Below, piece by piece: positions 20,090 to 22,155 of a stretch of DNA of 29,489 nt; position 1 is the first letter of the stretch, and every line of letters starts with the position of its first letter. Origin of the DNA: a virus (taxonomy: Duplodnaviria > Caudoviricetes); the IMG/VR virus record IMGVR_UViG_3300017913_000420, positions 1-29,489 of that record; one strand, 5' to 3'. The notes under the pieces are model-generated. The model had not been told where the DNA came from, did no database searches, and worked only from the letters and a program-made list of their open reading frames with translations. The position numbers and the translations under genes were made by a program.

Positions 20090-21376
20090 TTAAACAGCAA
20101 AAGGGTTGTAGTCACTGACCGCTGTTTGCTGGGGCGGTCTGCTATAATTCTTACGATTCTCCAAACCCACAGCGAGGTAACGGAACGCATCCGCTGAATG
20201 CGATGTGAAATCGTGTCTAGGGTGGTCTCTAAACCTTTGCTTCTTTTCATCCCATTCCTGCCTATACTGTCGGAGCATATCTAGCCCCTCTTCACATTTA
20301 TCTCTATCAAAATAACATTTAGGTATTAGTAATCTTGCCGCGTTAATGCCATCCGCTACTTTCATTTTTGGGATGACTCTGAATCTGATTCCAAGGTTGT
20401 AGGCTGTTTCGAGTCGGCTTTTGCCCGACCCCAATTCCCTAACTTCAATGTCGTGAGGAGCGAGGTGGTCGCCATAATTATAGTCTTTCTTTGAGAGTAT
20501 ATCTGCATAATGGTCGAGACCAACCCCAGAACTCTCGTAATAATCAATAACATTGACCGAACCGCCTCTAAAAACCTGCGCGAACCAAATCGCTGTAGAA
20601 TCATTAACACCTAAATCCCATGCCGTATGCACAGGGTAGGCAGGGTCATAAGGAACTCTTGTAATGCGACCATCCTCATCAGCCGCCCCCAATAGCTTGC
20701 CATAATACGCACCGATGATTGCCGCAGTGAAGGAACACTCATATTCCTGCTCATACTGCTCTGGTGTCATCTGCGCTCTTGCAGCGTCTAATTCCTCTGG
20801 CTTTACCACGCCAGTCTCACTAGCCTTACAAATCTTAAAATACCAGTCTTTGTTCCCTTCTTCAACCTGTGATTTAGCTGTCTCCAACAAGTCAAAGAAG
20901 TGGTTGTGACCAGCAGGTGTGCCAAGGAAGCAAGCAGAACCCTGTCGGTCAGACAAAGCAGGACGCACTACCTCGCTCCATACTCTAGGACTTTGCATCC
21001 CAAATTCATCAAAAATACACTGGTCAAGGTAAATACCACGAAGCGCATCTGGGTTTTCAGCAGAGAGCAACATTAAACGCCCCCCGTTAGGGAAGTCAGC
21101 TCTCAATTCTGTTTCATTGAAGGTAACGCCAGGGATGTTGCCAGCAAAGAACTTAACATAATCCCACGCAATCCTCTTAGCCTGGGCAAAGGTAGGAGCA
21201 ACAAACGCTGTACGCGGTCTAGGAAGCTCACAGGTGAGCGTATGCTTAATCAGCTGATTAACAGCCCAGACAGTCTTGCCAAAGCGTCTGTGCATCACCA
21301 TGACGTTCCAGCGAGCTAACTGCGTGTGCATATCCTTTTGCAAAGGACGTGGCTTATATGGAATCTTTACCTGCAT
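20090..21376 (-). CDS. terL: Terminase large subunit (428 aa)
   Basis: Walker A HRRFGKT, Walker B LRGIYLDQCIFDEF, motif III GTP, RNase H-like nuclease WDLG..DST and HD..SH.ADAFRY. Confidence 0.95.
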   Translation of the reverse strand: MQVKIPYKPRPLQKDMHTQLARWNVMVMHRRFGKTVWAVNQLIKHTLTCELPRPRTAFVAPTFAQAKRIAWDYVKFFAGNIPGVTFNETELRADFPNGGRLMLLSAENPDALRGIYLDQCIFDEFGMQSPRVWSEVVRPALSDRQGSACFLGTPAGHNHFFDLLETAKSQVEEGNKDWYFKICKASETGVVKPEELDAARAQMTPEQYEQEYECSFTAAIIGAYYGKLLGAADEDGRITRVPYDPAYPVHTAWDLGVNDSTAIWFAQVFRGGSVNVIDYYESSGVGLDHYADILSKKDYNYGDHLAPHDIEVRELGSGKSRLETAYNLGIRFRVIPKMKVADGINAARLLIPKCYFDRDKCEEGLDMLRQYRQEWDEKKQRFRDHPRHDFTSHSADAFRYLAVGLENRKNYSRPPQQTAVSDYNPFAV

Positions 21377-21479
21377 TGCTGTTCTTTCTGGAATAACTGC
21401 CCTTGCCCTTTTTGGGCTTTACAACTCTTTTAGCAAAAAGACGAGACCGTAAAAGCTTTGCCATTGGATTACGCTTCAT
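21354..21479 (-). CDS. arfA: ArfA-like (alternative ribosome-rescue factor A) peptide, 41 aa, missing from the ORF track
   Basis: MKRNPMAKLLRSRLFAKRVVKPKKGKGSYSRKNSNAGKDSI. TGATG coupling with the TerS stop. Carries the LF..RV.K.KKGKGSY.RK signature. Confidence 0.75.
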   Translation of the reverse strand: MKRNPMAKLLRSRLFAKRVVKPKKGKGSYSRKNSNAGKDSI

Positions 21480-21859
21480 CAGTCTGTCTCCCAAACAATC
21501 CGAACTGTGCCATCACTGACCTCTACGCCAGCTCTGTTCTTCTGCTCACCATAACGCTCTGGCATAAACACCTTGTTCTTCCATCTTACATGATGCCCGT
21601 AATCCTTTAGCAAGTGTGGGTCATAATCCTTACGCCCCTCCAGTGCATCTAAATACATAGTGTCTAACGCTTCTAATTCACGTTCAGAGGCTTGAGCCTT
21701 GGCAGCATACACAGCCCCCTCTAGCTCCTTGTCATTGCCCATACGCTTGTATAACCCAGCGCGAGAAATGCCAGTTTGCTTGCAAGCATACACTAAGCTG
21801 CATCCCTCGCTGAGTAGCGAAATGATTTCGTCAGTCTTTGTCTTAGTAATTTTAGTCAT
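21479..21859 (-). CDS. terS: Terminase small subunit (126 aa)
   Basis: N-terminal HTH (LSEGCSLVYACKQTGISRAGLYK), helical middle, 'RW.......PERYG' motif; upstream of TerL. Confidence 0.75.
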   Translation of the reverse strand: MTKITKTKTDEIISLLSEGCSLVYACKQTGISRAGLYKRMGNDKELEGAVYAAKAQASERELEALDTMYLDALEGRKDYDPHLLKDYGHHVRWKNKVFMPERYGEQKNRAGVEVSDGTVRIVWETD

Positions 21860-21896: not shown

Positions 21897-21998
21897 ACGT
21901 GCGCCCGTGTGCGTGGGGGTGCGCGCGTGTGCGCATGCCCCCCTGCGTGTGTGCGCGTGCGTGTGCGTGCATGTAGGCGCGAGCATGTGCATGTGTGC
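21897..21998. repeat. Alternating purine-pyrimidine (GC/GT) tract with a G5...C5 inverted repeat
   Basis: Uninterrupted 32-nt RY run at 21944-21975 plus several runs of roughly 8-20 nt. Confidence 0.8.
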
Positions 21999-22155
21999 TA
22001 GTGATTGCTGTCATGTTTTCCCTATATAGTATTACTATGCGCGCTAGGCTGTCCACTGGTCAGAGTGTGTGCAAACACTAACAAACCAACCAACAACCCT
22101 TACAGCTGATTATAGCCCTATTCCCAACACTGTAAACTTTTTTTGCATAACCCTA

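Follow-up and report, generated by a model that had tools for sequence, protein, structure and literature searches.

A short ArfA-family gene between the terminase genes of a phage, a candidate ribosome-rescue factor with counterparts in SAR11 bacteria

A short reading frame resembling the ribosome-rescue factor ArfA, lying between the two terminase genes of a phage, raises the question of whether it is a real gene and, if so, what its product does to host ribosomes. The window (the whole stretch of DNA analysed, 29,489 nt) is a linear virus record that is 89% complete. The frame comprises 41 codons and a TAA and runs from the ATG at 21479 to the stop at 21354 on the minus strand only, as the plus strand across 21354..21479 is interrupted by a stop. 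Its ATG lies in a TGATG and shares 1 nt with the stop of a 126-aa ORF, the TerS candidate, while its last 23 nt overlap the start of the 428-aa TerL ORF (ATG 21376) in a different frame. An earlier note had described this 41-codon ORF and both overlaps, and we reproduced its coordinates and sequence. The features of the region are as follows.

20090..21376, minus strand: terminase large subunit, 428 aa (Pfam Terminase_6N above cut-off; PHROG TerL families)
21354..21479, minus strand: ArfA-family peptide, 41 aa (pI 11.9, 14 Lys plus Arg, own TAA stop)
21479..21859, minus strand: probable terminase small subunit, 126 aa (weak PHROG TerS match, E 1e-4; Pfam below cut-off; position)
22109..22136, minus strand: sigma70-like site, candidate promoter of a terS-arfA-terL transcript (11/12 consensus matches only)

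The flanking genes had been named TerS and TerL in the earlier note. The TerL assignment stands, with a Pfam match above cut-off and matches to PHROG TerL families; TerS was only weakly matched and is supported by its position. Both terminase genes have the same nearest relative (contig L086), which bears indirectly on mis-assembly. No obvious Shine-Dalgarno sequence precedes terS. Five sigma70-like sites were found in the region against 3.6 expected by chance, and 22109..22136 is the sole site with more than 9/12 matches. The peptide gene lies in a run of packaging genes behind this site, in agreement with the proposed expression together with the late genes. Between the site and terS we also observed a CA/CG-rich low-complexity repeat (21900-21998; period 24, 2.5 copies by TRF), near the switch between divergent early and late gene runs. 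No tRNA or tmRNA genes were found in the window. The portal, capsid and tail module resembles that of HTVC010P-type pelagiphages, the nearest cultured relatives (TerL about 50%, capsid 63-75%). However, the GC content of the window is 45-48%, compared with 31-33% in cultured HTVC010P-type phages (PMC8477408), and the host is therefore probably not SAR11; we infer that it is a marine alphaproteobacterium.

To place the frame among its relatives, single-protein searches were insensitive (2 matches) and alignment-based searches were needed. Among viral contigs, 514 stretches fitted the pattern and 330 were confirmed as encoding a relative, of which the best 80 were retained. An ungapped 30-codon core was taken from 77 sequences (from the best 80 plus the window), 48 of them distinct. 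Among pairs differing at 3-27 bases, pN was lower than pS in 90 of 90 (pooled pN 0.105, pS 0.457, ratio about 0.23), although the pairs are non-independent and the homologues were ranked by protein likeness to the query, which lowers pN. Shifted frames of the same core gave pN/pS of 1.85 and 1.47. The peptide ORF is a real, conserved gene under purifying selection. Of 2,871 candidates in a profile search, 2,671 protein clusters reached E 0.001 or lower, cellular proteins included, and several of these clusters are already named ArfA by JGI or NCBI.

The peptide is a member of the ArfA family. The Pfam profile search suggested earlier placed it well above the gathering cut-off (PF03889; E 6.5e-12, 45.2 bits against 25.5), with 43.7 bits in the genome search. 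A PDB search with E up to 10 matched six sequences, all of them ArfA (E 2.3e-5 to 4.6e-5), and its alignment bears out the earlier estimate of about 18/31 identity, with 18 identities over 31 ungapped columns against E. coli ArfA residues 12-42. With a numbering offset of 10, the window peptide spans the equivalents of residues 11-51, and its Lys8 occupies the Ala18 column, the one that differs between the wild type and the A18T chain (5mdw); the lysine reported at this position was thus correctly placed. No NCBIfam family matched at E up to 1, and three PHROG families of unknown function did. Against each of five gammaproteobacterial ArfA-like proteins, from loci chosen by their KGKGS stretch, the real score exceeded all 2000 composition-preserving shuffles; with residues 1-18 by themselves, a clear margin over the shuffles was obtained for only 1-2 of the five.

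Comparison with E. coli ArfA (YhdL; PF03889; PDB 5MDV, 5MDW, 5MGP, 5U4I, 5H5U, 7OJ0) shows which parts have been kept. Shared with the window peptide are Leu19, Leu20, Leu24, Phe25, Arg28, Val29 and the KKGKGSY-RK stretch. The patch that binds Trp319 of RF2 consists of Leu19, Leu24 and Phe25 (Demo et al., PMC5378476), and all three residues are identical. ArfA activity needs a C-terminal reach to Asn47 (PMC5378476); the window peptide has an identical KGKGS motif in its basic C-terminal region and ends at position 51, where at least 47 is required. Past Lys42, however, its channel segment holds one basic residue and no KH motif. The N-terminal minidomain (residues 2-16), the ordering of which is coupled to RF2 opening (PMC5378476), is mostly missing: Met1 corresponds to residue 11, and Lys stands at position 18, where the Ala18 of E. 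coli packs between Ile11 and C1914 (PMC5378476). An in-frame TTG five codons upstream, inside terS, would still not supply the minidomain. The phage-borne gene also has its own stop at position 51, without the hydrophobic tail or in-frame hairpin of the E. coli gene. The earlier observations of a stop codon (TAA at 21354) and of a missing tail both held, the final ten residues having a GRAVY of -1.4, so that the hydrophobic destabilising tail of E. coli-type ArfA is absent. There is no terminator-like site within the ORF, which continues into terL, and no stable fold in its frame (folding z -0.42 and -1.41); the idea that the window copy carries an in-frame terminator or a stable hairpin was rejected. 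E. coli-type ArfA is expressed from a tmRNA-gated non-stop mRNA that arises through an in-frame terminator or an RNase III hairpin, and the window copy shows no sign of such a gate. The gene thus belongs to the Pfam ArfA family yet lacks three defining features of E. coli-type ArfA.

We favour, with moderate confidence, the reading that the window peptide acts as an ungated, RF2-recruiting rescue factor for stalled host ribosomes. The rescue role proposed in the earlier note is kept here as the best reading of an ArfA-family gene with its own stop, its function being predicted. Ribosomes finishing TerS would reinitiate on the peptide ORF through putative translational coupling, and the peptide would be made together with the terminases. 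Its basic KKGKGSYxRK stretch would enter the mRNA channel left empty when a ribosome stalls on a broken message, and Leu19, Leu24 and Phe25, with a beta-strand at 27-30, would be presented to host RF2. RF2 would then be activated and release would follow, without E. coli residues 1-10 and without tmRNA control; the benefit to the phage may be a supply of ribosomes late in infection. ArfA-RF2 pairs are species-adapted, and Bacillus BrfA activates RF2 with a different N-terminus (PMC8012679). Like the window peptide, BrfA and Francisella ArfT are small RF-recruiting rescue factors, and ArfT shows that such a factor can be ungated (PMC8874680); neither gave a sequence match to the window peptide in PDB or family searches.

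A different reading, which we consider possible but unlikely, is that the short subtype is an mRNA-channel plug. Such a peptide would bind the ribosome, perhaps with closed RF2, without opening RF2, and would shield or park idle ribosomes; on the phage side it may block tagging by tmRNA-SmpB or ArfB, or the loading of host messages. The absent residues 1-10 and Lys18 resemble the E. coli A18T state, which recruits RF2 without activation, and basic channel-binding inhibitors exist in eukaryotes (Stm1/SERBP1; PMC8874680). Nevertheless, the window copy retains Leu19, Leu24 and Phe25. Binding to RF2 is expected under the plug reading and under rescue alike.

The relatives of the gene bear on both possibilities. 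The window peptide fits a short SAR11/phage subtype with an N-x-x-A-K/R start, a P-K-K-G-K-G-S core and a stop within about 15 residues of the core, a fit that is partly circular as the subtype was defined from the same data (40 distinct phage cores and 70 distinct SAR11 copies). Lys or Arg occupies position 18 in 35/40 distinct phage cores and in 62/70 distinct SAR11 copies, fractions that are upper estimates since ranking homologues by likeness to the query favours Lys18; Ala18 occurs in none of the SAR11 copies. Most of the phage cores (33/40) end no more than 15 residues after position 42. The best 80 of at least 494 confirmed genome matches comprise 74 titled Pelagibacterales and six from gammaproteobacteria, and all six of the latter combine a long N-terminus with Ala18. 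The N-terminus and Ala18 were plausibly lost in concert, because Ala18 packs on Ile11 in E. coli.

The SAR11 chromosomal copies are about 33-44 aa long, have their own stop and lie in a common housekeeping context. One of them (P0118) is named 'alternative ribosome rescue factor ArfA' at NCBI. This minimal ArfA shares its build with the window peptide, with up to 77% identity, and differs in being cellular, in its conserved housekeeping context and in carrying mostly Asp19 and Lys24 where the window peptide has Leu. The RF2 interface of the short subtype, as read from these residues, differs from that of E. coli ArfA. The earlier description of the phage peptide as pre-truncated and unregulated therefore survives in part: it has its own stop and no non-stop gate was seen, but this is no phage adaptation, as the SAR11 copies have the same anatomy, and a phage-specific pre-truncation was rejected. 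The suggestion that Lys18 makes the peptide a dominant inhibitor fared worse. Lys or Arg at this position is the norm of the subtype, and we rejected Lys18 as a special inhibitory mutation. For a channel plug, it is relevant that the channel-binding stretch is the best conserved part whereas Leu19 and Leu24 are gone in most SAR11 copies, and that none of the 70 distinct SAR11 copies has an in-frame terminator, so that expression looks ungated, unlike that of a backup rescue factor. On the other hand, the aromatic residue at 25 and the hydrophobic strand at 29-30, both of which contact RF2, stay conserved.

ArfA and BrfA are made from non-stop mRNAs and gated by trans-translation (PMC8012679, section 7), and gates of this kind appear among relatives of the window gene. 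Ten non-SAR11 alphaproteobacterial loci include three with a clear in-frame hairpin and U-run and one with a weak one. On three alphaproteobacterial chromosomes (L257, L259 and L266) the ArfA-like gene is of the short-N form, has a KH motif and contains an in-frame hairpin resembling an intrinsic terminator; the two clearest of these terminators (L257 and L259) go with Ala18. In-frame hairpins are also carried by a phage with Arg18 (L067) and by phage RXM. In long phage ORFs the ArfA core is flanked on either side by a further basic domain, and there are long-tailed forms with Lys18. A hairpin over the core end with z of -2 or lower was found in 6/8 long-tailed phage forms against 8/41 short-tailed ones. 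In the long forms three base pairs have changed on both sides, and the covariation score was reached by 2/500 shuffles, a result that derives from only seven distinct, related sequences with a structure drawn from the same sequences. Six fusions of about 135-150 aa (L030:3070-3110, L033, L034, L069, L074 and L015) join a phrog_2423-like domain, the ArfA core and a phrog_17747-like domain; the covarying hairpin over the core end is followed there by a U-rich run, like a non-stop gate, and L052 and L055 are without it. Since gating of this kind suits a rescue factor, these hairpins lend indirect support to the idea that Lys18 forms rescue ribosomes, and the presence of in-frame hairpins in some Lys/Arg18 relatives argues against a plug.

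The distribution of the gene in cells points the same way, at least within SAR11. A profile match to a minimal, single-copy ArfA-like gene was found in 96/121 SAR11-family genomes, and ArfB scored above cut-off in none of the same 121. A plain inhibitor of rescue is hard to reconcile with single-copy retention in so many streamlined genomes that have no ArfB. A class-wide sample of Alphaproteobacteria gave ArfA-like genes in 13/301 genomes (three SAR11-like, several of the matches weak) and ArfB in 99/301. With the unpublished genomes left out (G334 and G387; G036 and G211), the fractions are 95/119 for ArfA and 0/119 for ArfB in SAR11, and 97/299 for ArfB class-wide. ArfB was present in 1/13 carriers of ArfA-like genes against 98/288 others (Fisher p 0.04 one-sided, 0.07 two-sided), and for the ten non-SAR11 carriers alone the exclusion has p 0.10, the genomes being non-independent. 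The switch-loop Trp was kept in both SAR11 RF2 sequences that were read. According to a published survey, arfA occurs in 0 of 2,376 Alphaproteobacteria (PMC11633108), and a review places ArfA in beta- and gammaproteobacteria only (PMC8874680). As neither places arfA in Alphaproteobacteria, the short subtype has been overlooked in both.

Taken together, a rescue role is likely to judge from the family match, the kept Leu19, Leu24 and Phe25, pN below pS, the SAR11 counterpart in genomes without ArfB, and the gated relatives with Lys or Arg at position 18. The absence of residues 1-10, which the earlier note overlooked, is the real reason to doubt RF2 activation. We also count against rescue the Lys in place of Ala18, the less basic distal channel segment, the loss of Leu19 and Leu24 in most SAR11 copies, the weak ArfA/ArfB exclusion outside SAR11 and the species adaptation of ArfA-RF2 pairs.

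Phage-encoded ArfA is not a new find, contrary to the hidden novelty claimed earlier for this gene, since it has already been annotated in two cultured phages (PMC12753301 and PMC8953757). In Pelagibacter phage HTVC027P, gp30 (MN698241) is named ArfA, lies next to TerS (PMC12753301) and shows high transcription at both early and late stages of infection (PMC12753301, section 12). Like the window gene, it has an ArfA domain, overlaps a terminase gene and has its own stop, Lys18 and a short tail; it differs in its length of 58 aa, its longer annotated N-terminus and its location upstream of TerS, and is 47% identical over 30 residues. Its function was asserted from Pfam only. Citromicrobium phage vB_CbaS-RXM carries g10, named ArfA (PMC8953757; OL963731), an ArfA-family product 47% identical to the window peptide over 36 residues. 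This gene encodes 60 aa and lies among small non-structural genes; its core is followed by a strong in-frame hairpin (z -3.6), and its tail is partly hydrophobic. Further matches, often unannotated, come from cultured Caulobacter, Sinorhizobium and Roseobacter phages, among others; the search gave 15 records with E up to 1, several of which are weak or bacterial. Examples of unannotated ArfA-like ORFs are one in Roseobacter phage CRP-212 (L002:2995-3120), contained entirely within a long annotated gene but read in another frame, and one in Caulobacter phage Cr30 (L004:2950-3102). In another locus (L072:3001-3090) the ArfA-like frame stops directly after KGKGS and is a pseudogene or a sequencing error. 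Across many viral loci (L008-L013, L018-L032 and L052-L084) the ArfA-like genes cluster with small, very basic ORFs (DUF6321, phrog_14910, phrog_7595) near lysis or structural genes, and these neighbours might be further ribosome or RNA binders. The literature searched, which covered few subscription journals, yielded no report in which the function of a phage or SAR11 ArfA had been tested. Searching passages of PMC8477408, PMC9599517 and PMC7824862, we found no mention of ArfA, and there was nothing further on phage ArfA copies in PMC6514570 and PMC10107115.

The location between the terminase genes had been taken as meaningful in the earlier note, and the relatives do not bear this out. In 80 loci chosen by TerL likeness (the best 80 of 127 confirmed), both terminase genes are adjacent in 77, and arfA lies between them in 1/77 (L145), which rules out a conserved TerS-arfA-TerL synteny. 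Others have unrelated cargo, and in four of the contigs nearest by TerL the arfA gene instead lies about 9 kb upstream, at a site where related loci show lysozyme and other small basic proteins. When the TerL-selected set was combined with three ArfA-selected rows, one of which is the L145 contig, 58 of the 80 junctions counted were insert-free and four rows held arfA (three contigs besides the window). The 18 others held a zinc-ribbon-like ORF (6), a basic 51-aa ORF (4), a Cys-rich ORF (3), a cupin-like ORF (2), a PD-(D/E)XK nuclease (1) or no clear ORF (2). The junctions in L089-L165 look like an insertion hotspot, with the same TGATG overlap serving as the start of at least five unrelated cargo ORFs, several of which run 11 nt into TerL. 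The slot is most plausibly a place where inserts are conveniently accommodated and well expressed, and not a sign of a packaging function.

The gene has also moved between phages, as part of the following segment.

21374..21479, minus strand: mobile cassette, 106 nt, from the peptide ATG to the TerL ATG (104/106 identical in two contigs, L006 and L007)

The 106-nt stretches flanking the cassette in those two contigs are 75/106 and 77/106 identical, and the TerS and TerL genes of the window are 61% and 71% identical to theirs (pS 0.69 and 0.86, near saturation). The TerL tree groups the window with phages that are otherwise without arfA at this site (support 99/95). A 98%-identical cassette in phages with 61-71% identical terminases, together with the placement in the TerL tree, indicates that the cassette moved recently. 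An exact 35-nt search found the same two viral contigs and no metagenome record. The window gene is one copy among thousands and adds mainly evidence of cassette movement between phages.

This mobility raises the doubtful alternative that a host-type rescue factor, working or nearly so, is carried as interchangeable cargo of little benefit to the phage, with the overlaps serving mainly to keep TerS-to-TerL coupling. Recent transfer of the cassette and the make-up of the junctions, most of them empty and 18 filled with other cargo of at least five kinds or with no clear ORF, would fit such a view. However, the phage copies are under purifying selection, as many as 330 viral stretches encode a relative, four of the nearest terminase relatives retain arfA elsewhere in the genome, and arfA is strongly transcribed in HTVC027P. 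A bolder version of the plug reading, put forward only tentatively, is that the short ArfA of SAR11 and marine phages is an always-on ribosome-parking plug that phages trade as a mobile cassette, gated and ungated, to control host rescue.

It is very improbable that the peptide has been repurposed as a small basic nucleic-acid binder of the late genes, acting off the ribosome in, for example, DNA packaging or condensation: its pI of 11.9, the many phage copies that have small basic proteins (DUF6321, unnamed PHROGs) as neighbours close to lysozyme or structural genes, or that form part of longer basic ORFs, and the basic 51-aa ORF occupying the same junction in four loci would suit this role, but the conserved residues follow the ArfA pattern, glycines and aromatics included, and not bulk charge, chromosomal copies in a housekeeping context share that pattern, and adjacency to the terminase genes is not conserved.

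In conclusion, we continue to prefer ribosome rescue through host RF2 as the role of this phage gene. If this is true, about 35-41 residues suffice to activate RF2, with no need for the N-terminal fold considered necessary in E. coli, and reviews confining ArfA to beta- and gammaproteobacteria are incomplete. SAR11, which lacks ArfB, would then share a backup rescue route with many marine phages. If the short subtype instead proves to be a plug of the mRNA channel, it would represent a new bacterial and viral means of ribosome control.
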